NCBI GenBank assembly: GCA_965279035.1
Contig: OZ257142.1
Location: forward strand, 4,000,001-4,064,000
Source: Bacteroidia bacterium
GTDB taxonomy: Bacteria; Bacteroidota; Bacteroidia; M30B66
Length of the DNA stretch: 64,000 bases
Reading direction: 5' to 3'
Under the pieces are notes generated by a model that had not been told where the DNA came from, did no database searches, and saw only the letters and a list, made by a program, of their open reading frames with translations. The position numbers and the translations under genes were made by a program. Shown here piece by piece: positions 29,856-63,592 of the stretch; position 1 is the stretch's first letter, and each line of letters begins with the position of its first letter.

Positions 29856-32800
29856 ATGAGACAATGGCGAACTATCATTTGGGTTTTACTGCTGCTTGTA
29901 TGCGGAGCAGAGACTGCATGGTCTCAGCTTGTCACAACGGGTAGTGGATCTGTTTCGGCCAATGCGCTTGTCAATAACATCATTGGTTCAGGAGTAACGT
30001 TTAGTAATGCATCCTACACAGGAAAGCCAGTAGCGGCAGGAACATTTAACGGAGTTAGTTCGAATATTGGATTACCAAGTGGAGTAATTATTACATCTGG
30101 TCACATTAACGTAGCTCCCGGACCGAACAACAATGGTGGAGCAACATTCAGTAATAATGGACCCAATATTCCCGAACTCGAAGTCTTAGCGAATTCTACT
30201 ACTTACGACGGTGCTATTTTGGAATTCGATTTTATTCCCCAAAGCAATTTCATCAGTTTCCGTTATGTGTTTGCTTCAGAAGAATACAATGAATATGTGT
30301 GTTCCGAATTCAACGATGCCTTCGCATTCTATATCACAGGTCCTGGAATTACTGGATCAGAAAATCTTGCCGTAGTTCCTTCAACAACGACTCCGGTAAC
30401 AATCAATACCATTAATAACGGAACCGTTGGATCGCTTGGTAGCATTACCAATTCCCCGTGTATCCTTGGAAACTCATCCTATTTTGTAGGCAATAACCAA
30501 AATACGGTTCAGTACGATGGCTTTACAACGGTACTAACTGCCCAAAGAACTGTTATTCCTTGTCAGACCTATCACATCAAATTAATGATTGCCGATGGTG
30601 CTGATGATATTTTCGATTCAGCCGTATTCCTCGAAGAAAATTCATTCAACTCCGCAACGTATACTGTTTCTGTTTCTACCTTCTTCAGCGATTCCACAGT
30701 ATATGAAGGCTGTACCGATGCAACGGTAACGTTCAGTCGCCCCAATGCTGATCCAACTCCGCTTACCATTACGTATGGAGTTACTGGAACAGCAACATCT
30801 GGAACAGATTACGTAGCACTTCCAGGCACGATCACCATTCCAGCAGGACAATCTTCTGTATCACTTACCATTAGCGGTATTGCCGATGGTATTACCGAAG
30901 GAAGTGAAACCATTATCATCAATGCCAATACACCCTGTGGCACCATTCCCGAAGTCATCTTTCTGAATGAAAAACCACCTGTTACCGTCTTTGTTCCTAA
31001 CGTTTCAATTTGCAATGGACTTGGTCCTGTAACGCTCAATGCAACTGCAAGTGGGGGAATTCCACCTTATACTTATAGCTGGAATACTGGTGAAACAACT
31101 TCATCCATCAGTGTCAATCCGGCTTCCACAACGGTATATACTGTTACAGCAACCGATTTTTGTGGCACTTCCGGACAAGCTCAACCAGTGGTTGATATTG
31201 CAACTATTCCTACTGCTTCGATCAGTGCTCCACCTTTTGTTTGTAGTGGAGTTCAAGTTCCCGTAACGTATACTGGAACGGCATCGCCATCAGCAACCTA
31301 TATTTGGGATTTCGATAATCCATCGGGAGTTTCGAGTGGTTCTAGTCAAGGTCCGTATCAAATTACTTGGGATTCGTCAGGCATTAAAACCATCTCATTG
31401 CAAGTGATCGCTAATGGTTGTAGCAGTAATGTTGTTACTACGCAAGTGCTCGTCAATCCTACTCCAACGGCAGATTTTGTAGTCGATCCGATTGTCTGTT
31501 CAGGACAAACTGCAACAGTTACTTATACTGGAACAGGTACCGATGGTGGTGGTTACGGTTGGGGATTTCCCGGAGGTGTAATTATCACAGGTGGACGACG
31601 TGGTCCATTTGAAATCCGTTGGGATTCGGTAGGCGTTTATGGAGTGACCGTTACGGTTACAGAAAATGGATGTACATCACCGGGAAATGAAGTATTTGTG
31701 AATGTACTTCCAACACCAACATCCGATTTCACAGCAGAAACTCCCGTTTGCGTAGGTGATCCATCAACCATTCAATATTTAGGATCGGCTTCATCAACTG
31801 CTACATACAATTGGAATTTCGCAGGAGGAATAACACAAAGTGGCGCTGGTGTTGGTCCGTATGAAGTTTCTTGGAACAATTCAGGAACTAAAGACATATT
31901 TCTTTCCATCACCGAAGCAGGTTGTACAAGCGATATTACAACGCATCAAGTAGTTGTAAACAGCATTCCTACAGCCAATTTCAATGTTGCATCACCGGTT
32001 TGTGCTGGACAACCAACAACTGTAACTTATTCAGGAAGTGCAAATAGTAGCGCTACCTATAACTGGGATTTTGGAACCGCAACGGTTATTTCAGGTACTG
32101 GACAAGGGCCTTATACTGTTTCTTGGCCTAATGCTGGAACCTACACAGTTTCATTGACAGTAACACGAAACGGCTGTACGTCTGCACCTTATACTCAACC
32201 AGTAGTAGTGAATGCCATTCCGGCTGCCCCTTTTACTGTTGAATCGCCGGTATGTGTGGGCGAAGGCTCTACAATAGCCTATACAGGTTCACTTGGACAA
32301 GGAACAACCTTTACTTGGGATTTCAGCAATGGACAAATATTGAGTGGCCTTGGTGCTGGTCCTTATGAAGTGTATTGGACAGTTCCAGGAACAAAACCAA
32401 TCACCTTAAGCGTTACATCACCTCAAGGTTGTCCTTCTCAACCGCTAGTTATTCCTGTCGTTGTAAATCCAACGCCAAGCTCTGTTTTCACTGCCGAAAC
32501 GCCCATTTGTTTAAACGAAAGTTCAACCATTGTGTACACAGGTTCGGGAAATCCGGGAGCACAATACACCTGGAATTTCAATGGAGGAAGTGTGCTTTCA
32601 GGCGGTGGACAAGGTCCTTACGAAATTCAATGGGGAACACCTGGAATTAAAACCATTACCGTTGCAGTTCAAGAAAATGGATGCGTATCTCCTCCAACAA
32701 CGCAACAAGTAAACGTTCTTCCTCTTCCTACAGGATATTTCACAGCAGCATCGCCTGTTTGTGCAATGAGTACAACGAATATTGTGTATTCTGGAAATGC

Positions 32801-35024: not shown

Positions 35025-35640
35025 CTTTCAAGTCTTTAACAAAGACGAGATAACAATTCTCATCTGGTCGGATTTGAGCAAGTTCGAACTCCCAAACTTC
35101 ATTTTCCAAGAGTAATTTTCCGTTAAATGAATGTGCATTTTTCGGATTGATGGAAGATATGATGAGTTGTGTTGAAAAAATAAGATTTTTCTTCCCATAA
35201 GCCTTATACATGGCTTCTTTCGCTCCCCAAAAATTTTGTAATAAGTCTTGTTTTTCGGTAGAATTATGGAGCATTTCCAATTCGCTAGAATGAAGAATAC
35301 GATTGGCTACTTGGTTTAATTGAGGACGAATTTCTTCCACATCAATTCCTTGATTCGTATGGGGATGAAAGGAAAAAGCAACATGGCTTCTGGAATGACT
35401 TAAGGAAATATGTCCTTTTCCATCTGAGGGCCAGGGCTTTCCATATTCATCACTCTTCCATTCAAACTGATTTCCCAAAACACGTTTAACGAGTCGAGTT
35501 AAGTCGGCTTTATCTTGGTGTTTTCGTGTAGCTACACTTATTTTTTCTTCAATAGGACTTACACATTCATAAGCAACAATTCCTTGTCCATCAGCATTTT
35601 CAAATACAAAAAAACCATCTTGCTCATCGAATTGAATCAT
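35008..35640 (-). CDS. 4'-phosphopantetheinyl transferase (Sfp/EntD-like)
   Basis: YGKP, HISLSHS, GIDVE, WGAKEAMYK. Confidence 0.9.
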   Translation of the reverse strand: MIQFDEQDGFFVFENADGQGIVAYECVSPIEEKISVATRKHQDKADLTRLVKRVLGNQFEWKSDEYGKPWPSDGKGHISLSHSRSHVAFSFHPHTNQGIDVEEIRPQLNQVANRILHSSELEMLHNSTEKQDLLQNFWGAKEAMYKAYGKKNLIFSTQLIISSINPKNAHSFNGKLLLENEVWEFELAQIRPDENCYLVFVKDLKVISLK

Positions 35641-35686
35641 CCTCTTTTTTTATTGCTATAGCTATTAAAGCTGTAAAATTAATGCT

Positions 35687-35694
35687 TACTTTTG
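35687..35694 (+). promoter_or_regulatory. -7 promoter box
   Basis: TACTTTTG; implies the true start of the next gene is ATG 35715, not 35682. Confidence 0.6.
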
Positions 35695-35714
35695 AAGGAC
35701 TGCCAATTCTGCCT

Positions 35715-38700
35715 ATGAAACTACCGCTACACTCAACCGGCAAACATCTATTTATCCTGCTTTTACTCACTATTGGCTTCTCTATGAAAGGGAAGGCTCA
35801 ATATGCAGTTGATACAACCTTAACTCCAGTTCAATACATCAATAACCTTGTAGGCTTAGGTGTTTCTTTTGGAAACATACAGTACCAAGGAGATGGGCAG
35901 GCTATTGGTTCTTTTACAGGAGCGAATGGTTCTTTAGGTTTCAGTAGCGGAGTTATTCTTTCCACTGGATTAGCTGCGAGTTCAGATGATGTTTCATCTA
36001 GTTTTGCAGGAGGCTTTAACACATATGGCTTAACGAATATTCCTGAATTAGCACCCAATGTTCCAGGTTGCTTAGGTGTTACGAATGATGGTTTGATTCT
36101 TCAATTCGATTTTGTACCTCAATCGACACCGGTTTCATTTCGATACATATTTGCCTCAGAAGAATATGCTGATTTTGTATGTTCTCAATTTAATGATGCT
36201 TTTGCATTTCTAATTTCTGGTCCTGGTATCGTTGGAGAACAAAACTTAGCTTTAGTTCCCGGATCAGGAGATCCAATTACAATTAACACAATCAACAATG
36301 GTACAGTTGGTACATTTGGAAGTATCACCAATGATCCATGTATCACAACAAATTCTCAATACTATAATTCAAGTCCACCAAATAATATTGTTTATGATGG
36401 ATATACGGATGTAATGACTGCTGTAGCAGATGTTATTCCTTGCCAAACATACACCTTACGATTAATCCTTGCTGATGGATGTGATAGTGGTTATGATTCT
36501 GCTGTATTCCTTGAAGCCAATAGTTTTGGTGCTGCACCAGTAGCCATTTCACAAACAACTTTAAATGGCGATTCAACTACGTTCGAAGGATGCGCACCTG
36601 CAACATTGATTTTCTCTCGTCAAAATGCAGATCCATTTGATTATGTTTTCCCATTCACTTTAACCGGAACTGCAACCAGTGGTGTTGACTACAATCCAGT
36701 TCCATCATCAATCACAATTCCTGCTGGTCAAACTTCTGTTCAACTTGCTATTACCGCAATTGAAGACGGTATTGTTGAAGGAACAGAGACAATCGAATTG
36801 AATTACCAAACTATTTGTGGTACAATTTCTACCATCGTTTACATCACCGAAAAACCGGCAGTTGTTGTTACTCCCGATCCGGCTCCTTCCCTATGCGGTG
36901 GTCAAGGTCCTGTAACTGTTTCGGGTTCTGCAACAGGTGGCGTTCCTCCATTCACCTATTCATGGTCGGGTGGTTTAGGTACAGGTACTTCTATCAGCGT
37001 TAATCCTTTAGCAACAACAACTTACACCCTTACAGCCACCGATTTTTGCGGAACATCTTCATCCGTTGCTATTACTGTTCCTGTAGGAACAACTCCAATT
37101 GTTCCTGTTATTGGACTACCTGTAAACGCCATTTGTGAAGGTGAGCAACTCTTACTGAATGCATCAACGACAACGGCTGGTGCTACCTTAGTTTGGACTG
37201 GTCCAAATAGCTATTATGCTCAAACCACAACTGTCAATATCCCCAACACAACGATTGCAAACTCAGGCCAATATCAAGTGTATGCAACACTCAATGGATG
37301 TGATAGTCAACCAGCATTGATTGATGCACTTGTAAAACCTAGACCTACTGTTCCAGTGCTTGGTTCAAATTCACCAGCATGCGAAGGAAATGCGTTAAAC
37401 CTAACGGCAAATGTAGTTCCTGCAAATTCGGTTGTTACTTGGACAGGTCCGAATTCTTTTGCAGCAGTTGGATCAGCACCTTCAATAGCACAATCAACTA
37501 TGGCAGATGGTGGATTGTACGCAGCAACAGCCGAACTCAATGGTTGTGTTGCTACAGCTGGAAGTGCCATTCAAGTAGTTGTAAACGACACTCCCGATGC
37601 TCCTCCTGCTTCATCTAATTCTCCTGTTTGTGCAGGATTTTCATTGGATTTAACTACTACTTCTGTTGCTGATTCTTATTTATGGTCTGGACCACAAGCT
37701 TGGAGTGCAGTTACACAATCGGCCTCTCGTCCTACTATGACAGCTGTGAATGCCGGTATTTATGCTTTGTCTATCACAATTAACAATTGTACAAGTCCGC
37801 CAACTCCTCTTCAAGTGGATGTGATTGATGCTAGTTTTATTCCTGCAATAACAACTAATTCTCCTGTATGCGAAGGCAGTAATTTGGATTTTAGCACTCC
37901 AGCAGTGAACAATGCAAATTATTTCTGGTCGGGACCAAATGGCTTTAGTGCAAATAATAGAAGCAATCAAATACCAGTAACAGTAGAAGCTAACGAAGGG
38001 CTTTATTCAGTTTACTTAGTTATTGGAGCTTGTACAACAGCAACCAACCAAAGCAATATAATCATCAATCCTATTCCTGTTGCTGATGCTGGACTACCTA
38101 TTCAAATTTGCTCTATGCAACCCGGTCAACTTGGAGCCGCTCCAGTTGCAGGTTACAGCTATTCTTGGAGCCCAGTTGAAGGTTTAAACTTTAGCACTAT
38201 TTCTAACCCAACTCTTCAACTTGGAAGTATTGGTGGACCTATTCAACAACATACATTCACTTTGACAGTTACTGCCGATGGTTGTCAAAACCAAAGTACA
38301 GTTGATGCTGAAATTATACCTCAACCTGTTGCTTCATTTGTTGCTCCCAATCCTACTTGTTTCGAAAATAACTCTTTCGATTTTCAAGCCGACGGCATAT
38401 TCAATTCTACAGATCCTCGTTATGTTTGGGATTTTGGTCCTTGGGCAACACCCGATTCATCGTTAGAAAGAAGTCCGCAGGATGTTCATTTTGAAGCTAC
38501 AGGAATCCATTTAGTTCGACTAGTTGTAATTGATTTAGGATGTCCAAGTAATACGTACATCGCACCAGTCAATGTGTTGAAAATGCCAGTGGCAAACTTT
38601 GCTAGCGATAAAATTGAAACATGTAGTCCTAGTCTCGTTCAATTTGAAAATCTATCCGAAAACGAAGGAGATCCTTTTACTAATCAGTGGTTGTTTGGTA

Positions 38701-39362
38701 ATGGAAATAATTCAATTGAAGAAAGCCCAACTGTACTTTATAGCACTAGTGGAAATTATCAGGTTTCACTTCAAGTTACTGGTATAAATGGATGTAGTAA
38801 TACGTATACTATTTCATCTGCAGTTCAAGTTCATCCTTCACCAACATCACAATTCAATGTGAGCCCAACTGTAACTACGATTTTTGATCCTGAAGTTGAA
38901 ATCTCCGACCTTTCAACTATGGCAACAGAATGTATGTATTTGATGGGAAATGGAGATACAATCGCTGAGTTCAACACACATTATACATATGCAGATACAG
39001 GCTCTTATGTAATTACTCAAGTGCTAAATAATGAATTTGGTTGTACCGATACTTCTCAAATGAATGTACGAATCGATTTAGGATTTAAAGTATTTATCCC
39101 AACTGCTTTTACTCCTAACGATGATGGGAAAAATGATCGATTCAGAGTTTATGGTGAAGATGTACGCGATTTCTCCATCAATATATTTAACCGTTGGGGA
39201 CAAATGATTTATTCTTCCTATGACATTGAAAATGGCTGGGATGGAAGAACCTTACTTAACAATACGATTGTCCCAGGTGGTTTGTATATCTATGCAATTA
39301 AAGTGAAGGATCGCTACGGTTTAGATTATACCTACAAAGGAGAAGTAACCGTATTACGTTAA
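35715..39362 (+). CDS. T9SS type B cargo: choice-of-anchor-L-like head, Ig-like WTGPN stalk, PKD domains, gliding-motility-associated CTD
   Basis: ..KAQY signal cleavage; YIFASEEYADFVCSQFNDAFAF; repeated C.G..L.L.A......W(T/S)GP; VFIPTAFTPNDDGKND...FNRWG...GWDG...VTVLR. Confidence 0.88.
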   Translation: MKLPLHSTGKHLFILLLLTIGFSMKGKAQYAVDTTLTPVQYINNLVGLGVSFGNIQYQGDGQAIGSFTGANGSLGFSSGVILSTGLAASSDDVSSSFAGGFNTYGLTNIPELAPNVPGCLGVTNDGLILQFDFVPQSTPVSFRYIFASEEYADFVCSQFNDAFAFLISGPGIVGEQNLALVPGSGDPITINTINNGTVGTFGSITNDPCITTNSQYYNSSPPNNIVYDGYTDVMTAVADVIPCQTYTLRLILADGCDSGYDSAVFLEANSFGAAPVAISQTTLNGDSTTFEGCAPATLIFSRQNADPFDYVFPFTLTGTATSGVDYNPVPSSITIPAGQTSVQLAITAIEDGIVEGTETIELNYQTICGTISTIVYITEKPAVVVTPDPAPSLCGGQGPVTVSGSATGGVPPFTYSWSGGLGTGTSISVNPLATTTYTLTATDFCGTSSSVAITVPVGTTPIVPVIGLPVNAICEGEQLLLNASTTTAGATLVWTGPNSYYAQTTTVNIPNTTIANSGQYQVYATLNGCDSQPALIDALVKPRPTVPVLGSNSPACEGNALNLTANVVPANSVVTWTGPNSFAAVGSAPSIAQSTMADGGLYAATAELNGCVATAGSAIQVVVNDTPDAPPASSNSPVCAGFSLDLTTTSVADSYLWSGPQAWSAVTQSASRPTMTAVNAGIYALSITINNCTSPPTPLQVDVIDASFIPAITTNSPVCEGSNLDFSTPAVNNANYFWSGPNGFSANNRSNQIPVTVEANEGLYSVYLVIGACTTATNQSNIIINPIPVADAGLPIQICSMQPGQLGAAPVAGYSYSWSPVEGLNFSTISNPTLQLGSIGGPIQQHTFTLTVTADGCQNQSTVDAEIIPQPVASFVAPNPTCFENNSFDFQADGIFNSTDPRYVWDFGPWATPDSSLERSPQDVHFEATGIHLVRLVVIDLGCPSNTYIAPVNVLKMPVANFASDKIETCSPSLVQFENLSENEGDPFTNQWLFGNGNNSIEESPTVLYSTSGNYQVSLQVTGINGCSNTYTISSAVQVHPSPTSQFNVSPTVTTIFDPEVEISDLSTMATECMYLMGNGDTIAEFNTHYTYADTGSYVITQVLNNEFGCTDTSQMNVRIDLGFKVFIPTAFTPNDDGKNDRFRVYGEDVRDFSINIFNRWGQMIYSSYDIENGWDGRTLLNNTIVPGGLYIYAIKVKDRYGLDYTYKGEVTVLR

Positions 39363-40162: not shown

Positions 40163-40265
40163 AAGCGAAGGCAAATTTAATCGAATATGCTTCGCTTGAT
40201 ACATTCGTTGATGCTCTTGTTTTGTAGACTATTATATTACTTTAGCAAAATTAACCCGATAATCT

Positions 40266-41969: not shown

Positions 41970-42011
41970 TCTATTTTCATCCCAACCCAAAAAATTTAAA
42001 TTCAATAAACG

Positions 42012-43538: not shown

Positions 43539-43654
43539 TAAGGAATTAGACCTTCAAGAATGCCGGCTTACATCTGTTTGTCGGCATTTTTATTTTATTC
43601 AAATCCTTCGTTTCGACCTTTTTCCAATGTACTTTTAACTCTTCAATTGATTGT

Positions 43655-44176: not shown

Positions 44177-44200
44177 GGAACAATTCTGAACCAACATAGA

Positions 44201-46688: not shown

Positions 46689-46702
46689 TCTATTAATTCA
46701 TA

Positions 46703-46746
46703 ATAATAAAAAGCCTCATAAATTCAATTTTATGGGGTTTTTTATT
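46703..46746 (+). terminator. Probable terminator after gpmI
   Basis: AAAAAGCCTCATAAA...TTTATGGGGTTTTT imperfect hairpin with T-run. Confidence 0.6.
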
Positions 46747-48474: not shown

Positions 48475-48564
48475 TTTTTCCATTAGAAAATAGTTGAATT
48501 GCATTTTATAAAAACAAACCAGAATGCATATTTCTTAAAGACTTTCCTTAAAGAAAATACAATG

Positions 48565-48602
48565 AAAAACCCCCGTAAAGAATAACTCTACGGGGGTTTT
48601 TA
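48565..48602. terminator. Bidirectional terminator between convergent genes
   Basis: AAAAACCCCCGTA...TACGGGGGTTTTT. Confidence 0.85.
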
Positions 48603-48621
48603 TTATAGTTAAACAAGATAT

Positions 48622-51600
48622 TTATCGAAGCAGTACAACAGTTCCTTCGTAATTGGTCTTTATGCCACTTCGTTGAGTTGCATCAATTTTATAAATGTAA
48701 ACTCCACCATCACAAACATTGTCTTTTAGCAAGGTTCTTCCATCCCAACCATTTTCCATATCGTACGAAGAATATAACAATTGACCCCAACGATTGTAAA
48801 TAAGCATTTGGAATTCAGTTACATCTTCACCATAAACACGGAAGAAATCATTGTAACCATCGTTGTTTGGTGTGAAAGCAGTTGGAACATATACTTTATA
48901 TCCAAGTTCAACTATGGCTTGTTTCGTTAATGAATCGCGACAACCAAATGTTGTAGTAACTACTTGACGAATATCATAAATTCCAGAATCAGGGAAAGTG
49001 TATCGTGTGTCGGCTTGGTATATATAAGCAGTATCATCAACAACGTAAAAAACTTCATCACCACCTTGAGAAAGATCAATGAAATCCATTTCTGGTTTGG
49101 TTATGTATACGATTTCAGGATTAAGAGCAAAATCGGCATTAGGAGTTGGATAAATACGAATCATTTCATTGATAAGATAAGTATTTGAACAACCTTTCTC
49201 GGAAGTAATAGTTAAAGAAACATCATAAACTCCTGGATCATTATAGAGAACCGTTGGATTATCTATTTCTGCACCTCGTCCATTTCCAAATGACCAAACT
49301 CGTGTCTTAATTGGATCATCTGATTCACTTAGATTGGTAAAATTGATCACTTTAGGATCGCAACCAACAAAAAAGTCAGAAATGAAATTGGCAACAGGCA
49401 TTTTATAAACCATTACTGGAGCCTGATACAAATTACTTTCACAACCGCGGTCGGTAATGGTTAAACGAACAATTTGTAAACCAGTTGAGTTATAAATAAT
49501 GTCTTGAGGACTTTCTAATGTTGAAGTTGCATTATTTGCCCAAGGACCAAATTCCCATGCAAAAGTTGCATTGGCTGAATAATATCCATCTGCATCAAAA
49601 TTAAACGAATTCCCTTCAAAACATGCAGGATTTGGAGCTATAAATGAGGCAATTGGTTGAGGATTGACTGTGATAACAACTGTGTCTTTTGTTGAACAAA
49701 TCTGGTCGGTAGTAGTCACTATGTATGTGTAATCGGTTGGTTGACCAGACATGTTTGAAATAGTAGCTGTAGGGTTAGAAATTGTTGAAAAATCTAAACC
49801 TCCTATAGGGGACCAAGAATAAGTATAACCTGCAACTGGAGGAGCTCCAATTGCAGCAGGTTCAAGTGAACAAACAATCAAATCAGATCCAGCATTTGAA
49901 ACAGGTAATGCAATAACTACTGGAGTGATAGAACCAATTGCCGAAGAACAACCATGCTCTGTAATTACAAGTGAATATTGTCCAGCATCAGTTAATTGAG
50001 CATTGGTAATTGAAATATTTTGAGTTGCTGCACTAAAACTTCCAGGACCAGTCCAAGCATAGGTTGTTCCTACAATTGGAAGCGGTGCAGGCCCTGTAAT
50101 AGTTAGGGTTGTATTTTCACATACAGGTGAATTCGAAATTAAAACTGGAGTTGTTGGAATTGGATAAATATTGACTGTAGTTGAACCAGCTAAACTCCAA
50201 CATCCATTAACCTGAACACGTAATGTATACACACCTGACATAGAAGATGTAACGGCATTCACTGTTGCATTTTGATTGGAAGATATAACCGTTCCAATTG
50301 GATTCTTCCATTCATAAGTTGCTCCAGCAATAGCTGGAACATTCAATTGAAGATTATCGCCATCGCATAATGGACCATTATTCGTTGGAACAGGTGTAGT
50401 TGGATATGGATTGATAACAGCTGTAGTTGAACCAGGTAAACTTGGACAGGAGTTTACACTTACAATACAAGAATAATTTCCATTTGCGGCATTGGCAGCA
50501 GCTGCAATTGATGGATTTTGCAAGGAAGATGTAAATGAATTGGGACCAGACCAGCTGAAAGTACCTCCAGCATAGTTGTTACTTGTAAAGTTCAAGGGTG
50601 TTCCTTCGCAAACAGGGCCGCTATTGGAAAGAGTCGGAGTTGCAGGTGTCGCAAAAACAAACACATTCACCGAACTGATACTTGAACAGTTATTAATTGG
50701 ATTAAGCGCAGTTACCTGATAAACTCCAGCCATAGCAGGCGTTACATTAGTCAGTACCGGGTTTTGAAGGTTTGATGCAAATCCATTAGGGCCAATCCAA
50801 GTATATTGACCATTATCAACATTACTTGCTGTTAAAGAAACATTTTGTCCTTCGCATGCAGGACCAGATACTCCCGCCTGAACAGGGCACTGAGAACAAG
50901 AAGCTGGTGCATTATAATTTCCAATCGCTGCGCAGGTATTATCATCAGAAAATACGACAGTTAATTGTTCCGCATTTCCGTTTGATGATAGATTGGTGAA
51001 ATTGTAATTTACGGAAGTCGCAAATGGTGCATTAAAACTGAGGAATCCACCAGATGAATTTGTAATTGTTAATGAACCAGTAGAAGGTGGATTTGTAAAA
51101 TTGATTGTACCGGCTAAAATATAAGTATTGGTTGTTGGATCACAAACAGTTGGAGCTGGTGTAGCATCTACACTACAAAAAATACTACAGTCGGTTGAGC
51201 CTGTTCCTCCATTTTGTTGAAAATTAATATTCGTTGCTAGATTCGAAAAATTTGTAAGAAGTAAAACATAATATTCTCCAGCTTGAGCATTCGCAATTGA
51301 ACAATTTTCAGTAGCTGAAGCAGAGTAGCTACAATCAATTACGTTAGTAGCATTTGCTGCCCATACAGGATCTAATACTTGAGTACAAACACCATTGGTC
51401 CATTGTGTTTGAGAAAACGGTCCCCAACAAATAAAGTCGACATCAAAACCTGAAGTGATTTGTAAGTCAATTGGTCCTGTATTCTGAACCTTCATAAAAT
51501 ACCAAGCTGGATTTGGAGTAGAACCTAGGCAACTAATACCTCCTCCAAATTCTGATTGTGTTCCTGTAGCTGCAGGAAAGGTAATACCCCCAGCTACATC

Positions 51601-52830
51601 TGTACAAAATGGTTGTGCGTCATCGCAAAATCCAGTAGGTAAAATTACAGGTGCCTGACAAGTTCCGCAGGATAATGTTGCCGAAAATCCAGTGGAAGTT
51701 ACAGATCCGTTAGAAGTAAATACTAAAGTCAAACATCCTCCAGAATTGGTAGAACTGGCAACAGGTAGTGGAACTGAAAATCCAGAAAAAACACCTAATA
51801 AATCAGCTCCAGTATTGGGCCCATCATATACAGATAGTCGATCGAACGTTGCTTCTGTATTGAAACTTGTAAAGTTGAGTGCAACACATTGACCAGGAGT
51901 TCCCGAACAAATTGTTTGTGTAACACTTTGATTATTACCATAATTACCTAAAGCTCCAGGATCAACAAGAGTTCCACCACACGTGGTGATTGTATTTCCT
52001 CCAACACCAAGTATCATATTAGGAGTTTGACAAACTCCACATGCAACATTCGCTTGAAAGCCAGTACTATTAACAGATCCATTGGAAGTAAACTGAAGAG
52101 TCATGCAACCTCCAGAATTTGTTGAAGTAGACACCGGAGCTGGAATGGATGTACCTGAAAACACTCCTATTAAACCAGAGCTTGTGTTAGGTCCATCATA
52201 AATTGTTAGAAGATCAGCATCAGCTTCTGTATTGAAACTTGTAAACGTAAGTGAAACACATTGACCAACAACATCCGAACAAAATGTTTGAGTAATGGAT
52301 TCATTGTCTGAATAATTACCTGGACCACCTGCATCCATTAAAATTCCACTGCAACCAGAAATGGAAGCTCCACCTTGACCTAAAGTAATTGCAGGTGGAC
52401 ATGTAACGCAAGATATTGCAGCATTGAAACCTGTGTATGTTACTGAACCATCTGAAACAAATGAAAGAGTAATACAACCACCAGAAGCTCCTGTTGATGT
52501 TACAACGCCCGGACTAGTTGTTCCTGCATAAGTTCCTAAAACTGCAGCTAGTGTGCTGTTTCCGTCATAAATTGTTAATGGATCACAACAAGATTCAGTT
52601 TCAAATGCACCAAATGAAAGTTGTACACATTGTCCCGTACCAGAACAAATCGTTTGAGTTGTATTTAAACCATTGGTATAAGCTCCAAACCCACCTGGAT
52701 TTTCAAGTGTTCCACCACAATCAGTAATGGTTGTTCCTGTAGCGCCCATAATGTATGTTTGGGCGTTTGTTTTAACACCCCAACAGAGCATTAGAAGCAA
52801 CAAGCATCCTATATAACTGAAATTTTTCAT
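48622..52830 (-). CDS. T9SS type B cargo, 1402 aa: three CUB domains, Cys-rich CLGSTPNPAWY domain, WTGPN stalk, PKD, gliding-motility-associated CTD
   Basis: Three CUB-like units (CGG...PG..Y.N...TQTIC...L.F..F.TE...D.L.IYDG...F.S.GSV...GF.A); CTD VYVPTAFTPNNDGYND...YNRWG...GWDG...VVLLR. Confidence 0.88.
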   Translation of the reverse strand: MKNFSYIGCLLLLMLCWGVKTNAQTYIMGATGTTITDCGGTLENPGGFGAYTNGLNTTQTICSGTGQCVQLSFGAFETESCCDPLTIYDGNSTLAAVLGTYAGTTSPGVVTSTGASGGCITLSFVSDGSVTYTGFNAAISCVTCPPAITLGQGGASISGCSGILMDAGGPGNYSDNESITQTFCSDVVGQCVSLTFTSFNTEADADLLTIYDGPNTSSGLIGVFSGTSIPAPVSTSTNSGGCMTLQFTSNGSVNSTGFQANVACGVCQTPNMILGVGGNTITTCGGTLVDPGALGNYGNNQSVTQTICSGTPGQCVALNFTSFNTEATFDRLSVYDGPNTGADLLGVFSGFSVPLPVASSTNSGGCLTLVFTSNGSVTSTGFSATLSCGTCQAPVILPTGFCDDAQPFCTDVAGGITFPAATGTQSEFGGGISCLGSTPNPAWYFMKVQNTGPIDLQITSGFDVDFICWGPFSQTQWTNGVCTQVLDPVWAANATNVIDCSYSASATENCSIANAQAGEYYVLLLTNFSNLATNINFQQNGGTGSTDCSIFCSVDATPAPTVCDPTTNTYILAGTINFTNPPSTGSLTITNSSGGFLSFNAPFATSVNYNFTNLSSNGNAEQLTVVFSDDNTCAAIGNYNAPASCSQCPVQAGVSGPACEGQNVSLTASNVDNGQYTWIGPNGFASNLQNPVLTNVTPAMAGVYQVTALNPINNCSSISSVNVFVFATPATPTLSNSGPVCEGTPLNFTSNNYAGGTFSWSGPNSFTSSLQNPSIAAAANAANGNYSCIVSVNSCPSLPGSTTAVINPYPTTPVPTNNGPLCDGDNLQLNVPAIAGATYEWKNPIGTVISSNQNATVNAVTSSMSGVYTLRVQVNGCWSLAGSTTVNIYPIPTTPVLISNSPVCENTTLTITGPAPLPIVGTTYAWTGPGSFSAATQNISITNAQLTDAGQYSLVITEHGCSSAIGSITPVVIALPVSNAGSDLIVCSLEPAAIGAPPVAGYTYSWSPIGGLDFSTISNPTATISNMSGQPTDYTYIVTTTDQICSTKDTVVITVNPQPIASFIAPNPACFEGNSFNFDADGYYSANATFAWEFGPWANNATSTLESPQDIIYNSTGLQIVRLTITDRGCESNLYQAPVMVYKMPVANFISDFFVGCDPKVINFTNLSESDDPIKTRVWSFGNGRGAEIDNPTVLYNDPGVYDVSLTITSEKGCSNTYLINEMIRIYPTPNADFALNPEIVYITKPEMDFIDLSQGGDEVFYVVDDTAYIYQADTRYTFPDSGIYDIRQVVTTTFGCRDSLTKQAIVELGYKVYVPTAFTPNNDGYNDFFRVYGEDVTEFQMLIYNRWGQLLYSSYDMENGWDGRTLLKDNVCDGGVYIYKIDATQRSGIKTNYEGTVVLLR

Positions 52831-52832
52831 GG

Positions 52833-53222
52833 TCAGTTTTGTGATGAATTAGTATTCATTTCGTTTTTAATCCGTTCTAATTCTATATCCAATTCTTGAT
52901 AGGATAAAATATCAATCGGATTTCCCGGCACTGTTAAATACACGCGCTTACGCGTTTTTGCTTCTCTAATGTATTGATTGACATCAAAACTGTTGATATC
53001 AATAGCAGGACAATCAGGGCAAGGTTTCATTGTATTCACAACCCAAGAATTCCGAAAGATGAAATTCAATTGAGCAATCTTCAAAGCATCCATTTGAGAG
53101 ATCTGTTCTGCAGAATAATAACGGGATGCACGAGAATCCAATGTAGGGTTTGTGCTAGAAATTTGCTGAGCAAATAATGCACTTCCGGCAAACAGGGCAA
53201 GAAAAAGCAACGTGTGTTTCAC
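52833..53222 (-). CDS. Small exported hypothetical protein with CPDC motif
   Basis: GTG start, signal peptide ..ALFAQQ, stop 2 bp upstream of the CUB gene start; TATATTTG box at 53242-53249. Confidence 0.75.
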   Translation of the reverse strand: MKHTLLFLALFAGSALFAQQISSTNPTLDSRASRYYSAEQISQMDALKIAQLNFIFRNSWVVNTMKPCPDCPAIDINSFDVNQYIREAKTRKRVYLTVPGNPIDILSYQELDIELERIKNEMNTNSSQN

Positions 53223-53305
53223 AGGGTTTGTGTTGGGAATACAAATATATCAAAATATCAATTCGAAAAGCATGTATGTTGACTAACACCTTATTAGCAG
53301 ATGTA

Positions 53306-55483: not shown

Positions 55484-55646
55484 AGGTATTTTTTTTAAGA
55501 CCGTAAAAGTAACAGAATCAAACCGAACACACATGCTTACAGGTAAAATCGGTGTTATTAGAAGAATCATTCACATTCGGGTATGGACAACTCCTTACAG
55601 AAATAGAATACCGACAGCAGGTTTCGAATACTTTTGAATCCAATAC

Positions 55647-56678: not shown

Positions 56679-56689
56679 CCTCTTGACCA

Positions 56690-58096: not shown

Positions 58097-58101
58097 TGCA
58101 T

Positions 58102-58234
58102 TTGGGCGTGCCCTTTTTGCCTTCACGCAAATGCCTTCGCACTCAAGGTCGCGCTTTCCGCTATACTCCACATCGCCAGCCTTCGCTTTTAGCTACGGCA
58201 GGCGATGCGGGGTGTCGCTGCAATCGCTCACGCG
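58102..58234 (+). ncRNA. Structured RNA resembling the Bacteroidota Flavo-1 motif
   Basis: TTGGGCGTGCCC...GGTCGCGCTTTCCGCTATA...GCTGCAATCGCTCACGC layout, matched from memory to Flavo-1. GCGTG(58106-58110) pairs with CACGC(58229-58233), and CATCGCC(58171-58177) with GGCGATG(58201-58207). Confidence 0.6.
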
Positions 58235-58273
58235 GGGTTCGGAATAATCATGCATCATCCCGTCGCATGTTAA

Positions 58274-58464
58274 CCCCGGATTGAAATCCAGAGCTACTGG
58301 CAACTAACACAATCATTCTTCAAGCACCCCCGGATTTCAATCCGGGGATTCCAACCTACGACGAGGAATCTTAATTCGATTATCTTGCATCCCCGGATTG
58401 AAATCCGGGGCTACCGGCAACGATCACAATCATTCAACTAGCACCCCCGGATTTCAATCCGGGG
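58274..58464. repeat. Four REP-like palindromes CCCCGGAT(TGAA/TTCA)ATCCGGGG as two 117-bp tandem doublets
   Basis: Palindromes at 58274 (imperfect), 58328, 58391 and 58445; loops alternate TGAA/TTCA; CTAC follows copies 1 and 3. Confidence 0.9.
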
Positions 58465-58482
58465 ACCTTACACCTCCACCCT

Positions 58483-58848
58483 ATGCAAAACAACATCCTC
58501 TGGCACGATCTCACCGTTGACGATGCCGCGAAAGTCAGCGAGTTTTACGAAAAAGTAGCAGGCTGGGAACGCCAAAGCTTCGACATGGGTGGATATAACG
58601 ATTATGTAATGTCGCCCGAAGAGGGAGAAGATCCCATTGCAGGTATTTGTTATGCACGCGGCAGCAATAAAGACATACCGCCACAATGGCTCATGTATGT
58701 GAATGTGGAAAATCTCGACAAAAGCCTTGAAGCGGTTACACGTTTGGGAGGAAAAGTCTTAGGAGACAAACGCAAAATGGGCGACGATGGCAAATTCTAT
58801 TGCCTCATACAAGATCCTGCAGGAGCGTATATGATGTTATGTGGTTAG
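58483..58848 (+). CDS. VOC/glyoxalase-family protein
   Basis: WHDLTV, FYEKVAGW, PPQWLMYVNV, GGKV, IQDPAGA. Confidence 0.88.
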   Translation: MQNNILWHDLTVDDAAKVSEFYEKVAGWERQSFDMGGYNDYVMSPEEGEDPIAGICYARGSNKDIPPQWLMYVNVENLDKSLEAVTRLGGKVLGDKRKMGDDGKFYCLIQDPAGAYMMLCG

Positions 58849-60671
58849 TGTGTGATGAATATTTTGGCAGCACCCTTTCCTGATGCGCTTTGAATTCGCA
58901 ACAAATACATTCCTTGGGGAATTTCTGTAACTGAGATCGTTTGCATTCCTTGTTGCAAATGTTGAATACGAATTAATCTACCAGCTAAATCATAAATTTC
59001 AAGCATTCCTTCTTCTTTAAGTTTAATTGAGATTTGATCATTCACTGGGTTTGGATATAGCTTAAAAGGAATTTGTTCTAATACTTCAAAACCAGAAGGA
59101 ATAAATTGAATTGTATCTGAAAATAAATAGCAGCCATTTGTGTAATCAATATAAACAGCATAGCTGCCTGCTTCTGTTAATGTTAATTGTGGTTGAATTA
59201 CCTGTTGAAATAAAGAATCTATCACCCAATAACCTATGTACATTCCTTCGGGCACATCAAAACTGAGAGTGGAAGTTAGTGTATCAAAATGCAAAATAAT
59301 TGGATCTGGTTGTGGAAATGTATTCACTACAAATTCGACCGAATCAGCTGAACCACATTGGTCAGATACATAAATGCGATAAAGTGTTGTATCAACTGGA
59401 CTAACCGAAATGCCAGAATACGTGCTTTCATTATTTAACCAGGCGTATGTAAATGGTGGAATACCTTGTATAACTTCTACATACAAATTAATTGGCCCTT
59501 GTCCCGAACAAATAGCATGAACTGAACTTGAAGCTAATTCTAAAATTGGTTGATCATCTAGTTGAAATTCAGAAACGATTTCACCACAAAAAGAAGGATA
59601 TGTAAAAATGAGTGTTTCAATCCCTTCTGTTTGGTTGTCTTGATAAATACTTAGTGATAAGTTCGTCGAATCTTGTCCAGACGGAATTATCAATGAATCG
59701 GGTAAAAAAGTATAATCTATTCCATTGCTAGCAGAACCACTTATTGAATAATGAAAAATATATTCTCCTATTACAGAATCGGGTTTTGAAAATGTTAGAT
59801 CTAAGGTAGTGCAATCTTCGTATGCTGAAGGCGTATGCAAATCAAGACGAGAGACGATTATAGGCCCTTGAGAAGGTTGACTCTGAGCCGCAAGAAAAAC
59901 GGCAGAATCATAACCGCTATCACAACCATCTGCAATCATGATTCTAAGTGTGTAGGTTTGACAAGGAATCACCGCTTTTTTAGCAACTAAAACAATTGTT
60001 GAACCGTCATAAACAATATTTGTAGGAGGATTTGAATTAAAATACTGAGCATTTGTTAGAATACATTGATCATTTATAGTACTACCATAAATACCTGTAG
60101 AACCATTATTGATCGTACTGATTGTAATCGGATCGTTTGTTCCTGGAACTACTGCTATATTTTGTTCGCCACTAATACCTGGTCCAGAAATAATAATTGC
60201 TAAAGCATCATTAGTCGAGGAACATACGAAATCGTTGTATTCTTCTGATTCATAAATGAATTTAAGTGAAATACTATCGTTTTGCGGAATGAAATCGAAT
60301 TGTAATATAATTCCATCATACGTATTTCCATAAACACTACAATTTGGAACATAGGCTGCTAATTCGGGTATATCAACTAAGCCTTGATTAATAAATTCGC
60401 TTGCAAAACCAACTATTGTATCATCTGAAACCGCTGCTTTTCCGGTACTAAGAATTAATCCACTGTTTATTCCTAATTGCCCACTTGAGTCTGTAAAATA
60501 CCCAATTGCTTGCCTATCGCCTAATAGTTGAGCATTACTAAATGCGATTCCCGGACCTAATAATTTTTCTACATATTGATTTACTGTTAGGCTTGTATCC
60601 ACCGTATACTGTGCGTTTACTAGCGTTGGATTAGTTAAAATAACAAATAATAATAGGATAAGCCTTTTCAT
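58845..60671 (-). CDS. T9SS type A cargo with choice-of-anchor-L-like head
   Basis: ..NAQYTVDT; FIYESEEYNDFVCS; ADGCDSGYDSAVFL; type A CTD LYPNPV...IYDLAG...GMYLL. Confidence 0.85.
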   Translation of the reverse strand: MKRLILLLFVILTNPTLVNAQYTVDTSLTVNQYVEKLLGPGIAFSNAQLLGDRQAIGYFTDSSGQLGINSGLILSTGKAAVSDDTIVGFASEFINQGLVDIPELAAYVPNCSVYGNTYDGIILQFDFIPQNDSISLKFIYESEEYNDFVCSSTNDALAIIISGPGISGEQNIAVVPGTNDPITISTINNGSTGIYGSTINDQCILTNAQYFNSNPPTNIVYDGSTIVLVAKKAVIPCQTYTLRIMIADGCDSGYDSAVFLAAQSQPSQGPIIVSRLDLHTPSAYEDCTTLDLTFSKPDSVIGEYIFHYSISGSASNGIDYTFLPDSLIIPSGQDSTNLSLSIYQDNQTEGIETLIFTYPSFCGEIVSEFQLDDQPILELASSSVHAICSGQGPINLYVEVIQGIPPFTYAWLNNESTYSGISVSPVDTTLYRIYVSDQCGSADSVEFVVNTFPQPDPIILHFDTLTSTLSFDVPEGMYIGYWVIDSLFQQVIQPQLTLTEAGSYAVYIDYTNGCYLFSDTIQFIPSGFEVLEQIPFKLYPNPVNDQISIKLKEEGMLEIYDLAGRLIRIQHLQQGMQTISVTEIPQGMYLLRIQSASGKGAAKIFITH

Positions 60672-60682
60672 ATTTTAATGAA

Positions 60683-63592
60683 TTAATTATGCTCTACAAT
60701 TACCTTTGCTATTAGCAAACCCGAATTTGATCGGAACTGAAAAAGATAAATTCCCTCAGCTAAATCATCAACATAAATAAAGTGAATTCCTGATTGTACT
60801 ATCTTTTCTTTAATCAATTTCCCAGCTAAATCGAACACATTTAAAACACCTGATTCTGGAACTGAAACTTGAATGAAATCGCTTGCTGGGTTGGGCTGTA
60901 ATGCTAATCTAGCAATGGATAATTCAGGGATTCCAGTTGGATCAAAAAAGTAATTTTGAGAAGATTTCGAACAACCAAACTCATTGGTCACAACGACTTT
61001 ATAATACCCTGGAAATTGAAGTTTGAGTGTATCGAATGTTTGTCCAGGAATTAGTTCATCACCAAAAAACCCATCACTAAAAAACCATTGATAATTTCCA
61101 CTTGCTTGAAATGCATGTAAAGAATTAGACAATGGATCAAAAAATAAAGTTGGAATTACTGGAGAAGGATTAACGATTACTGCTTCTTCAATAGATGTAT
61201 TAATGCAACCTGAAATATTAATACTGCAGCTATAATTTCCTTGATCCTGAATTGATATTGGTATAAATTCCAAGGAAGAACTAGTGTTATAGAAATTGCC
61301 AGATTGATACCAAGTATATTCAGCTCCCGGATACTGTGTCACATCCAAAACCAACGTATCCCCAGCACATGCAAGTACATTTCCAATTATCGTAACATCA
61401 TCAGGAAATTGATGAATAAAAACATTTACAGAAGCTATACTGTGACAGCTATCCACTGGATTAAAAACGTCCAAATGATACACTCCGCTCATGGATAATT
61501 GAGCATCCTGCAAAATCGGATTTTGTTCGGTAGATGTAAACCCATTTGGGCCCGTCCAAGAATATTCTGCACTGATTATTTCAGAAGCTTGCAATTGAAA
61601 TGGATGCCCTGTGCAAGTAACTGAATCGATCAAGGATGCAGAAACAGCGCAAGAATTACATGCTAAAGGAGCAGTATATTCAAAGGAATTCGAGCAATAA
61701 GGTTGATCCGAGAAAGACACTACAATGGTATGTTGTTGTCCATCGGAAGCAAGTTGATTAAAACTAAAATTTAATGAATCAGGAAATGGAGCTTCGAAAT
61801 TCAAGATTCCTCCTGAAGAATTGATAATTTCCACATTTCCAGATAGGGGCGGATGAGGTATATAAAGTGTGCTATTTATTGAAAATGAATTGTTGGTGGA
61901 ATCGCATTCAGAAACGAATGTATTTACCGTGTGATCACAGATTGAACTACAATCCGTTGTACCGGTGCCCCCGTTTTGTTGAATGTTTATTAATGTAGCT
62001 TGATTGGAGAAATTTGAAATGAGGAGCATATAATACTCTCCCGATTGAGCATTGGAAAGATTACAATTTTCAGTTGCAGAACCTGAATAGCTGCAATCAA
62101 TTACGTTAGTAGCATCTGCTGCCCAAACAGGATCTAATACAAAAGAACAAACTCCACTATCCCATTGCGTTTGACTAAAAGGTCCCCAGCAAATATAATC
62201 TACATCAAAACCAGAATTGATTTGTAAGTCAATTGGTCCTGTATTCTGAACCTTTATAAAATACCAAGCTGGATTTGGAGTAGAACCTAGGCAACTAATA
62301 CCTCCCCCAAATTCTGATTGTGTTCCTGTTGATGCTGAAAAGGTAATTCCCCCAGCTACATCTGTACAAAATGGTAGAGCTTCATCGCAAAATCCAGTAG
62401 GTAAAATTAATGGATCATGACAAGTTCCGCATGATAATGTAGCTGAAAATCCAGAGGACGTAACAGATCCATTTGTAGTAAATACTAAAGTTAAACATCC
62501 TCCTGAATTAGTGGAACTAGCAACAGGAAGAGGAACTGAAGTTCCTGAAAAAACACCTAATAAATCAGCCCCAGTATTGGGTCCATCGTATACTGAAAGT
62601 CGATCGAATGTTGCTTCCGTATTGAAACTTGAAAAATTGAGTGAAACACATTGCCCAGGAGTTCCCGAACAAATTGTTTGTGTAACGCTTTGATTATTAT
62701 CATAATTACCTAAAACTCCAGGATCAACAAAAGTTCCACCACACGTGGTGATTGTATCTCCTCCAACACCAAGTATTATATTAGGAGTTTGACAAACTCC
62801 ACAGGCAACATTCGCTTGAAATCCGGTATGAGTATCAGATCCATTTGAAGTAAATTGAAGAGTCATGCAACCTCCAGAATTTGTAGAAGTAGATAACGGA
62901 GCTGGAATTGTTGTACCTGAAAACACTCCTATTAAACCAGAGCTTGTATTTGGTCCATCATAAATTGTTAGAAGATCTGCGTCAGCTTCCGTATTGAAAC
63001 TAGTAAACGTAAGAGAAACACATTGTCCAACTACATCCGAACAAAATGTTTGAGTGATGTCCTCATTGTTTGAATAATTACCAGGACCACCTGCATCCAT
63101 TAAAATTCCACTGCATCCAGATATCATTGATCCGCCTTGACCCAACGTTATGGCTATTGGACATGATATGCATGAAATGTTAGCATTGAAACCTGTGTAA
63201 GTTACAGAACCATCTGAAACAAATGAAAGAGTAATACAACCACCAGAAGCACCTGTTGATGTTACAACGCCCGGACTAGTTGTTCCTGCATAAGTACCTA
63301 GAACCGCAGCTAAGGTGCTATTCCCATCATAAATTACTAAAGGATCACAGCATGATTCGGTTTCAAATGCACCAAATGATAATTGAATACATTGCCCATT
63401 CCCTGAACAAATGGTTTGTGTTACATTCAATCCATTAGCATATGAACCATAACCACCAGGATTTTCAATGGTGCCACCACAATCTGTAATTGTAGTTCCT
63501 GTTGCTCCCATGATATAGGTTTGGCCATAGGTTGTAAAGGATAAAAACAGAAAAAAAACTCCAATTAAATAAACAGATAAATGTTTCTGCAT
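60683..63592 (-). CDS. T9SS type A cargo with three CUB domains (paralog of 48622-52830)
   Basis: Residues 24 to about 550 nearly identical to the 1402-aa protein; type A CTD LQPNPAS...VFDLAG...GIYLF. Confidence 0.88.
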   Translation of the reverse strand: MQKHLSVYLIGVFFLFLSFTTYGQTYIMGATGTTITDCGGTIENPGGYGSYANGLNVTQTICSGNGQCIQLSFGAFETESCCDPLVIYDGNSTLAAVLGTYAGTTSPGVVTSTGASGGCITLSFVSDGSVTYTGFNANISCISCPIAITLGQGGSMISGCSGILMDAGGPGNYSNNEDITQTFCSDVVGQCVSLTFTSFNTEADADLLTIYDGPNTSSGLIGVFSGTTIPAPLSTSTNSGGCMTLQFTSNGSDTHTGFQANVACGVCQTPNIILGVGGDTITTCGGTFVDPGVLGNYDNNQSVTQTICSGTPGQCVSLNFSSFNTEATFDRLSVYDGPNTGADLLGVFSGTSVPLPVASSTNSGGCLTLVFTTNGSVTSSGFSATLSCGTCHDPLILPTGFCDEALPFCTDVAGGITFSASTGTQSEFGGGISCLGSTPNPAWYFIKVQNTGPIDLQINSGFDVDYICWGPFSQTQWDSGVCSFVLDPVWAADATNVIDCSYSGSATENCNLSNAQSGEYYMLLISNFSNQATLINIQQNGGTGTTDCSSICDHTVNTFVSECDSTNNSFSINSTLYIPHPPLSGNVEIINSSGGILNFEAPFPDSLNFSFNQLASDGQQHTIVVSFSDQPYCSNSFEYTAPLACNSCAVSASLIDSVTCTGHPFQLQASEIISAEYSWTGPNGFTSTEQNPILQDAQLSMSGVYHLDVFNPVDSCHSIASVNVFIHQFPDDVTIIGNVLACAGDTLVLDVTQYPGAEYTWYQSGNFYNTSSSLEFIPISIQDQGNYSCSINISGCINTSIEEAVIVNPSPVIPTLFFDPLSNSLHAFQASGNYQWFFSDGFFGDELIPGQTFDTLKLQFPGYYKVVVTNEFGCSKSSQNYFFDPTGIPELSIARLALQPNPASDFIQVSVPESGVLNVFDLAGKLIKEKIVQSGIHFIYVDDLAEGIYLFQFRSNSGLLIAKVIVEHN

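Follow-up and report, generated by a model that had tools for sequence, protein, structure and literature searches.

Mosaic head of a short CUB protein points to gene conversion between type A and type B cargo genes of the type IX secretion system

How does a single bacterial genome come to carry the same N-terminal domains on proteins that end in different sorting signals? The question is raised by a 64,000-nt stretch of a Bacteroidia bacterium genome (assembly GCA_965279035.1, contig OZ257142.1, positions 4,000,001 to 4,064,000), which was analysed as a whole and is called the window here. Five intact open reading frames (ORFs) in it, P0001 to P0005, encode putative type IX secretion system (T9SS) cargo proteins. 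Among four of these genes every combination of two N-terminal heads with two classes of C-terminal domain (CTD) is present, as a preliminary description of the window had claimed and profile calls now confirm. Head A, a choice-of-anchor L domain, and head B, three CUB domains followed by a PPC-like β-sandwich, each occur on a long protein with a type B CTD (P0002 and P0003) and on a short protein with a type A CTD (P0004 and P0005). Sequence comparison indicates that the mature head of P0005 has been overwritten by the head of the long gene, its putative signal peptide, middle and tail still being those of the short family. We consider it probable that the locus combines four old T9SS cargo families, drawn from a common kit of modules, with a gene conversion of head B from P0003 to P0005.

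The mosaic short CUB gene

P0003, the long head B gene (48622..52830, minus strand), encodes 1402 aa, in which a putative signal peptide is followed by the head at aa 20-549 (nt 51184-52773), made up of three CUB domains and a PPC-like 'PNPAWY' domain, and then by Ig-like domains; the tail cassette (nt 48625-49923, minus strand) includes the type B CTD (nt 48631-48888). The short head B gene, P0005 (60683..63592, minus strand), encodes a mosaic of 969 aa: a putative signal peptide of the short family, a head at aa 20-549 (nt 61946-63535) that is the apparent converted tract, a short-family middle at aa 550-815 and a type A CTD (nt 60695-60895). The two heads are 88% identical in amino acid sequence over aa 20-549 and 86.1% identical in nucleotide sequence over 1592 ungapped nt (51184-52775 versus 61946-63537). 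Outside the tract, in the first 19 codons and beyond about codon 550, there is no nucleotide similarity and amino acid identity is about 35%. The tract thus bounded begins in the region where the signal peptide would be cleaved and stops where the fourth head domain ends.

Assembly collapse as the source of the likeness between the two heads was rejected, being at odds with the 86% nucleotide identity with its 221 mismatches, the two intact ORFs and the 4.2-Mb contig. The three CUB domains inside each gene are also about 70% identical in nucleotide sequence to each other (51685-52349 and 62460-63111); these triplets are internal tandem duplications that predate the tract shared between the genes.

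The affinities of P0005 change along its length. Its head is 79% identical to that of the long ortholog P0009 and 59-60% identical to those of the short orthologs P0006 and P0007, whereas its middle matches P0006 and P0007 at 62-66% identity and P0003 at 33%; the signal peptide resembles that of P0007. Trees were calculated for 39 proteins, P0003 and those from P0005 to P0043 without P0038, which was dropped because it covers 28% of the query only; 38 of the 41 matches listed first are among them. P0003 and P0005 are sisters in the head B tree (support 99), where P0009 joins next (98), and a grouping of the P0003 and P0009 heads without P0005 is rejected by the approximately unbiased (AU) test (p 3e-4). 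In the tree of the middle region P0005 lies within the short clade (99), and a clade of P0003 with P0005 costs 266 log-likelihood (lnL) units, with an AU p of 3e-9. P0003 is congruent throughout, its head, middle and tail all grouping with P0009, P0014 and P0025. Single sites tell the same story: P0005 has the long state at 46 of the 58 diagnostic head sites (8 short, 4 other) and the short state at 51 of the 66 diagnostic middle sites (4 long, 11 other). At the 79 sites that split P0003 from P0009, P0005 equals P0003 at 58, P0009 at 9 and neither at 12. Since P0005 sides with P0003 where P0003 and P0009 differ, the donor belonged to the P0003 lineage after its split from that of P0009. The features by which gene conversion is recognised were therefore found together in this gene, namely a bounded high-identity tract, diverged flanks, a conflict between the trees of tract and flank, and an identifiable donor lineage.

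The synonymous divergence (dS) of the tract is 0.49 and its nonsynonymous divergence (dN) 0.07, giving a ratio (omega) of 0.14; the flanks are saturated. These values indicate that the conversion is not very recent and that both copies have been under purifying selection. We conclude that a 1.6-kb internal tract of the short CUB gene, corresponding exactly to the mature four-domain head, was replaced by non-allelic gene conversion. The long CUB gene, which lies on the same strand at a distance of about 9 kb, donated its head, and purifying selection has acted on both copies from then on.

The same figures bear on whether the two genes might form an antigenic or phase-variation cassette, in which one silent donor copy varies the head that the other exposes, after the manner of pilin cassettes or of the adhesin domains common to rgpA, kgp and hagA in Porphyromonas gingivalis. 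Transfer of a head segment within one genome is shown here, and the accessible text of PMC5266723 describes domain rearrangement and recombination among T9SS cargo genes of P. gingivalis. However, both genes are full-length with a putative signal peptide and a CTD, a dS of 0.49 with an omega of 0.14 speaks for long purifying selection on both copies and rare exchange, and there is a single donor only. The sole transposase found in the window lies at 373-1539, no search having been aimed at inverted repeats or recombinases beside the genes. A variation cassette is, in our judgement, highly improbable.

Heads, tails and C-terminal domains

The analysis covered the 64,000-nt window with its 42 ORFs of at least 150 aa, and domains were called by NCBIfam and Pfam profile scans against curated cutoffs. 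P0002, the long head A gene (35715..39362, plus strand), has a choice-of-anchor L domain (nt 35838-36527), Ig/PKD domains and a tail cassette (nt 38070-39359) with a type B CTD (nt 39096-39356). Its ORF is open from 35682 (1226 aa); the start at 35715, which had been proposed from the outset, is preferred because the alignment with the ortholog P0124 begins only at residue 12 of the longer ORF. P0004, the short head A gene (58845..60671, minus strand; 608 aa), has a choice-of-anchor L domain (nt 59880-60578), further β domains and a type A CTD (nt 58854-59060), and stands in tandem with P0005, 11 bp apart (60671 versus 60683). P0001 (29856..35024, plus strand; 1722 aa) carries a more distant choice-of-anchor L head at aa 37-264 (nt 29964-30647); a Calx-beta-like region and numerous PKD repeats follow, and a type B CTD closes the protein at aa 1632-1722. 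A hydrophobic leader ending in AQ or GQ can be read in all five translations.

The choice-of-anchor L profile NF038133 scored 247 bits on P0001, 213 on P0002 and 193 on P0004 (cutoff 27), and CUB PF00431 (cutoff 21.4) matched P0003 with 110.9 bits and P0005 with 117.8, at three stretches in either protein. The type B CTD profile TIGR04131 gave 50.6 bits for P0002 and 50.1 for P0003 (cutoff 35); P0001 reached 30.6, under that cutoff, and its assignment comes from the Pfam CHU_C profile PF13585, which it passes with 44.2 bits (cutoff 27). P0004 and P0005 are of type A by both TIGR04183 (44.6 and 35.8; cutoff 23) and PF18962 (49.9 and 35.9; cutoff 27). The preliminary description had assigned the heads, including the distant copy on 29856-35024, and the CTD classes from motif strings in the translations; these strings are readable as quoted, the 11-bp spacing of the short genes is correct, and all of the assignments are borne out. 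SprB repeats (PF13573) stayed below the cutoff of 28 bits in P0001 (24.3) and P0002 (17.9) and were absent from P0003.

By sequence, the CUB domains of head B match cubilin (E 2e-30), PCPE-1 (E 2e-14) and neuropilins. The fourth domain reaches 18.9 bits with PPC PF04151, under the cutoff of 25.9; its structure model (pLDDT 87.7) is a β-sandwich whose best PDB matches are weak (E about 1e-3, TM 0.63-0.66 on target) and comprise a GOLD domain, a PPC domain, the collagen-binding domains of ColG/ColH and the C-terminal, claudin-binding domain of Clostridium perfringens enterotoxin. The PPC-like fold matches and the sub-threshold Pfam match thus agree. No curated family matches this PNPAWY domain above its cutoff, and the domain is a module in its own right. 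It stands alone as the N-terminal head of many proteins with type B tails in other Bacteroidota genomes, at loci L004-L050 (for example L005 1372-1863 and L006 10001-10420). The model of P0004 (pLDDT 89.6) is almost all β; a fold search with the whole model was dominated by multi-Ig arrays (GhpA, MAM-Ig-FN ectodomains) with a TM of only 0.11-0.23 on query, and gave no firm match for the choice-of-anchor L fold itself. No enzymatic domain was seen among the modules of the five proteins, and a binding role is likely for both heads.

The head A genes show a much looser relationship than the head B genes. P0002 and P0004 are about 60% identical over about 250 aa of the head (70% in nucleotide sequence over 635 nt), and over the next 175 aa identity is 32% only. 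The P0001 head is 45-50% identical to those of P0002 and P0004, which are thus closer to each other than to this third paralog in the window, as had been supposed. The tails of the two long proteins are about 48% identical over the last 430 aa. Those of the short proteins are 29.7% identical over 232 aa, mostly the CTD itself, and their pre-CTD parts fail to match each other at E 1e-4 or better.

The likeness of the long tails had been taken as a sign of close relationship and, with it, of domain shuffling. A shared tail exists, but choice-of-anchor L tails from other genomes are just as close to that of P0003 (47-50%), so 'closely related' overstated the case. We compared 62 tails by the last 435 aa of each, leaving out PKD-rich matches of 26-34% identity. 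The CUB family forms one clade (support 100) and the choice-of-anchor L proteins another (98), and P0002 and P0003 each group with orthologs from other genomes. Since the long tails cluster by head family and do so with other-genome orthologs, the shared tail is an old common cassette and not the product of recent exchange, and the long-gene architectures are old and stable, not freshly shuffled. Head and tail trees of the long genes are thus largely congruent, an outcome that the preliminary description had named as speaking against shuffling. Shuffling is evident elsewhere, in the conflicting head and middle trees of the short CUB gene and in the repeated changes of CTD class described below. 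Three non-CUB proteins also fall within the CUB tail clade: the tails of P0287, P0284 and P0274, which have a NIDO head (PF06119) or no recognised head, nest inside it and are cases, from other assemblies, of a CUB-type tail that has had its head replaced.

In a tree of 61 choice-of-anchor L domains, the short family (P0004, P0364, P0365, P0366 and P0129; support 100) and the long family with P0002 (95) are sisters (82), both inside a clade of 27 rows (100), and the head of P0001 falls on the opposite side. The P0004 domain is 68% identical to that of its ortholog P0364 and 60% to that of P0002. The placement of the P0002 and P0004 heads in sister subfamilies means that their relationship is old. 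The common kit comprises two N-terminal heads (choice-of-anchor L, and three CUB domains with a PPC-like β-sandwich), each set on a long Ig/PKD stalk with a type B CTD and on a short body with a type A CTD, and the long tails have diverged in step with their heads.

Relatives in other assemblies

The four genes belong to four old, widespread families represented in metagenome-assembled genomes (MAGs) of Flavobacteriales, Bacteroidia and Bacteroidota. Among the matches listed for P0005, the four-domain head occurs both on proteins of about 955-970 aa with PF18962 (type A) and on proteins of about 1400-1540 aa with PKD domains and PF13585 (type B); in the 39-protein set 13 CTDs are of type A, 25 of type B and one is partial. 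P0004 has full-length short type A orthologs in P0364 (64%), P0365 (56%) and P0366 (49%). Hand counts from Pfam annotations show PF13585 in 107 of the 120 choice-of-anchor L proteins among the matches listed and PF18962 in 11 (one has both), with neither in 3. The search with the P0003 tail returned, among the matches listed, CUB-headed long orthologs at 55-83%, a uniform set of choice-of-anchor L proteins of about 1215 aa that includes P0002 at 47-50%, and, at 40-56%, tails joined to further kinds of head, NIDO PF06119 among them. P0002 has an ortholog, P0124, with 79% full-length identity, and P0001 one, P0127, with 61%.

CTD class and head have parted company repeatedly in these families. 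Mapped as a label on the head B tree, the CTD class needs 7 changes, at least 6 of them forced by supported branches; it needs 4 on the middle tree and 4 (at least 3) on the head A tree. Over roughly their first 700 aa, P0018 (966 aa, type A) and P0022 (1410 aa, type B) are 92-100% identical in most windows of 50 aa, a single window dropping to 66%, and past that stretch identity is below 40%. For P0367 (593 aa, type A) and P0368 (1059 aa, type B) the figure is mostly 73-100% as far as about aa 375, again with a single lower window (64%). A clade of 955-aa type A proteins nests beside the type B protein P0013.

The families also recur together. In one Flavobacteriales MAG the accessions of a short CUB and a short choice-of-anchor L protein, HPH82545.1 and HPH82546.1, follow directly on each other, and other members of these two clusters lie on equal-sized contigs (11170, 15190), which we take to be the same contig in each case. 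Long CUB, 955-aa short CUB and long choice-of-anchor L proteins occur on equal-sized contigs of 53636, and further sizes common to members of different families are 17489, 26521, 105782 and 135105. A profile search of genome contigs with the head B alignment gave 78 loci, among which only L001, from a Flavobacteriales MAG, has a true ortholog of the long CUB gene and none has head A beside head B. The tandem short pair being unreadable from the DNA of the 78 loci, its conservation rests on the consecutive accessions and equal-sized contigs.

Do these recurrences mean that long and short forms work together? The heads could instead have no functional coupling, being chance paralogs in a cargo-rich genome, with the conversion a neutral by-product of recombination between nearby direct repeats. 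The two CUB genes do lie about 9 kb apart on the same strand, the tail cassette is common to at least four head types (CUB, choice-of-anchor L, NIDO and others), PNPAWY alone heads many type B proteins in other genomes, and choice-of-anchor L is found with both CTD classes in many proteins. Yet the same four families recur together in other assemblies, head sharing between CTD classes recurs with different breakpoints, the tract coincides exactly with the mature head, starting at the cleavage region and stopping where the fourth domain does, and both copies are under purifying selection. We therefore find an absence of coupling doubtful, and turn tentatively to a reading that itself falls somewhat short of an even chance: the repeated sharing of heads between type A and type B proteins, seen in several lineages, may reflect forms that are kept matched since they act on the same ligand.

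Routing, surroundings and significance

In Flavobacterium johnsoniae CTD swaps re-route a passenger, so that the CTD decides its destination; type A CTDs use PorV and lead to anchoring or release, and type B CTDs need cognate or shared PorP/SprF-like shuttles for static or gliding-track surface display (PMC12618676, accessible text). The preliminary description had recounted these routes correctly. Type A CTDs of F. johnsoniae gave either static anchoring or release (section 11 of the same text), and the accessible part of PMC9143113 has type A proteins of P. gingivalis linked to anionic lipopolysaccharide (LPS). By analogy with these two species, the type B proteins of the window would, after Sec export, be received by a PorP/SprF-like shuttle whose gene lies elsewhere and would remain at the cell surface, static or gliding-borne, and the type A proteins would pass via PorV to be anchored or released. 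If the published routing holds here, the cell would therefore present the same predicted ligand-binding head in two surface contexts.

An early proposal was that the genes form a dedicated adhesin/decoy system, in which each head is deployed as a long cell-bound adhesin and as a short released decoy, matrix or conditioning factor. The presence of all four head/CTD combinations fits it, as do heads kept alike by conversion, the tandem short genes 11 bp apart, the consecutive accessions of a short CUB and a short choice-of-anchor L protein in another MAG, and the capacity of type A CTDs to lead to release (PMC12618676, as far as its accessible text goes). But type A CTDs also gave static anchoring (same text) and LPS linkage in P. 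gingivalis (PMC9143113, accessible part), the short proteins retain several Ig-like spacer domains, and the long and short genes are neither co-located nor visibly co-regulated. We regard a decoy system as unlikely. The notion of a single system did not hold either: family scans of the window ORFs place the five genes dispersed among housekeeping genes, only P0005 and P0004 likely form an operon, and the families are widespread.

The neighbours in and around the region encode EF-P, a PcrB-like prenyltransferase, a phosphopantetheinyl transferase, a HisF-like protein and two POT transporters, and further a thioredoxin-like protein, a histidine kinase, iPGM, DPP4, a racemase, GlcD and a glyoxalase. 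The gene order of L001 (DPP4, small ORF, long CUB gene, iPGM, kinase, thioredoxin-like, POT, POT) is that of the window. The small ORF (52833..53222, minus strand; 129 aa) has an N-terminal hydrophobic leader and ends 2 bp upstream of P0003; tblastn finds it at 50% identity over 102 aa in L001 (9689-9994), directly upstream of the long CUB gene. Profile scans gave it no family match, and its best Atlas score, 0.86, is a lead only. It might serve P0003, a type B protein, as a partner or chaperone.

A third type A cargo gene, which the preliminary description did not mention, lies between the iPGM gene and P0003 (47062..48474, plus strand; 470 aa), outside the matrix of heads and CTDs. It scores 38.5 bits with TIGR04183 and 43.8 with PF18962, and its CTD was not matched by the P0004 or P0005 tail queries at E 1e-3 or better. 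The N-terminal part matches no known family, an Atlas search giving leads below 0.9 only. Because the gene is missing at the equivalent spot in L001, it is probably an insertion into conserved synteny.

Elsewhere in the window, the intergenic space that separates the SHMT gene from one for a nitronate monooxygenase-like protein holds an 81-bp tandem repeat at 14285-14509 (2.8 copies, 86% matches); an Rfam scan of the window gave no match, this repeat included. The DDE transposase gene (373-1539, minus strand; DDE_Tnp_1 and DUF4372) adjoins one for an AAA_14/DUF4143 ATPase (1631-2620, plus strand) where the window begins, in a stretch of low GC content (0.34-0.35). Genes for an ABC ATPase and an ABC-2 permease are paired at 22882-24530 (plus strand); such ABC ATPase/permease pairs in gliding Bacteroidota include gldA and gldF.

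Among known systems, SprB and other type B adhesins of F. johnsoniae resemble P0001-P0003, with their putative Sec leader, in having a long Ig/PKD-like array and a C-terminal type B CTD. The window proteins differ in their choice-of-anchor L or CUB heads and sub-threshold SprB repeats. SprB is also much longer. RemA/AmyB-type type A cargo, of the PorV route, is like P0004 and P0005, whose type A CTDs pass the cutoffs, whereas the passenger domains of the latter are common to type B genes of the same genome. The rearranging cargo of P. gingivalis reportedly belongs to one CTD class. There too, recombination moves passenger segments between cargo genes, but as allelic exchange from strain to strain (PMC5266723, accessible text), whereas the exchange between P0003 and P0005 crosses CTD classes within one genome. 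The engineered CTD swaps of F. johnsoniae sent one passenger to two destinations (PMC12618676, accessible text). The window would be their natural equivalent for two heads, a version that evolved and that includes several hundred stalk residues.

The grappling-hook protein GhpA of Aureispira (PDB 9flp and related entries) offers a wider comparison. A profile with many type B choice-of-anchor L proteins matches its C-terminal part (E 1e-91), the P0003 tail matches it weakly (E 1.6e-6) and the P0004 model matches its Ig arrays; GhpA has 5898 aa and another distal end, however, and the likeness to P0003 and P0004 is confined to generic Ig/PKD/CTD modules. The NCBIfam 'choice-of-anchor' families are named for co-occurring with different C-terminal sorting signals; the family description is silent on paired paralogs or head conversion. 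Animal CUB proteins such as cubilin, PCPE-1 and neuropilins match the head B CUBs in sequence, the context of head B being a bacterial T9SS protein. Literature searches that missed most subscription journals found no paper combining 'CUB domain' and 'T9SS' and no published paired type A/type B paralogs with heads homogenised across CTD classes.

Several points weigh against the account given here of four old families and a head B conversion. Forcing the P0005 head into the short clade is rejected weakly (AU p 0.035, lnL difference 38). All trees come from 'quick' searches under LG+G4 with SH-aLRT support only, and several rows have long branches. There has been no recent head A exchange in this genome, and the sister-clade support for its short and long families is modest (82). 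The near-identical type A/type B pairs, which come from separate metagenome contigs, could be chimeric assemblies. No further protein of the source contig (4,200,666 bp) appeared among the matches listed for the P0005, P0004 and P0003-tail searches over the length ranges searched, and further paralogs of either head may exist outside the 64-kb window. Apart from the short pair, the genes have no operon in common. The 43 window ORFs scanned include no T9SS core family (SprA/Sov, PorK-N, PorV, PorU) and no PorP/SprF-like shuttle gene; secretion of these proteins is for that reason deduced from their CTDs. The genes next to the type B genes encode PcrB-like, phosphopantetheinyl transferase, HisF-like and DPP4 proteins, the 129-aa ORF and the third type A cargo protein. 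With no PorP/SprF-like gene adjacent, all three type B genes count as 'orphans' as PMC12618676 uses the word; its accessible text lists three such type B substrates in F. johnsoniae.

A stronger version of functional matching would have the long type B and short type A proteins form a functional pair obliged to carry the same head, with conversion across the two T9SS routes, under selection, repeatedly restoring identity in many Flavobacteriales lineages. Such pairs would be, for example, an anchored receptor and a short or shed form that share a ligand, or heads on different cells that bind one another. We think it improbable; if true, 'one head, two CTD routes' would be a conserved design rule of T9SS surface proteins and not an accident of modularity.

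The five proteins are ordinary modular T9SS cargo, and the new part is the head B mosaic across CTD classes. As head, stalk and CTD have separate histories, whole-protein orthology calls mislead in these families. To judge from this locus and its relatives elsewhere, nature makes the same swaps as the CTD-swap experiments, and gene conversion keeps two copies of a head alike in at least one case. To our knowledge, bacterial CUB and choice-of-anchor L heads have no known ligand. The same head on two predicted routes in one cell would offer a natural test case for the fates of type A and type B proteins, and for whether such heads act as adhesins.

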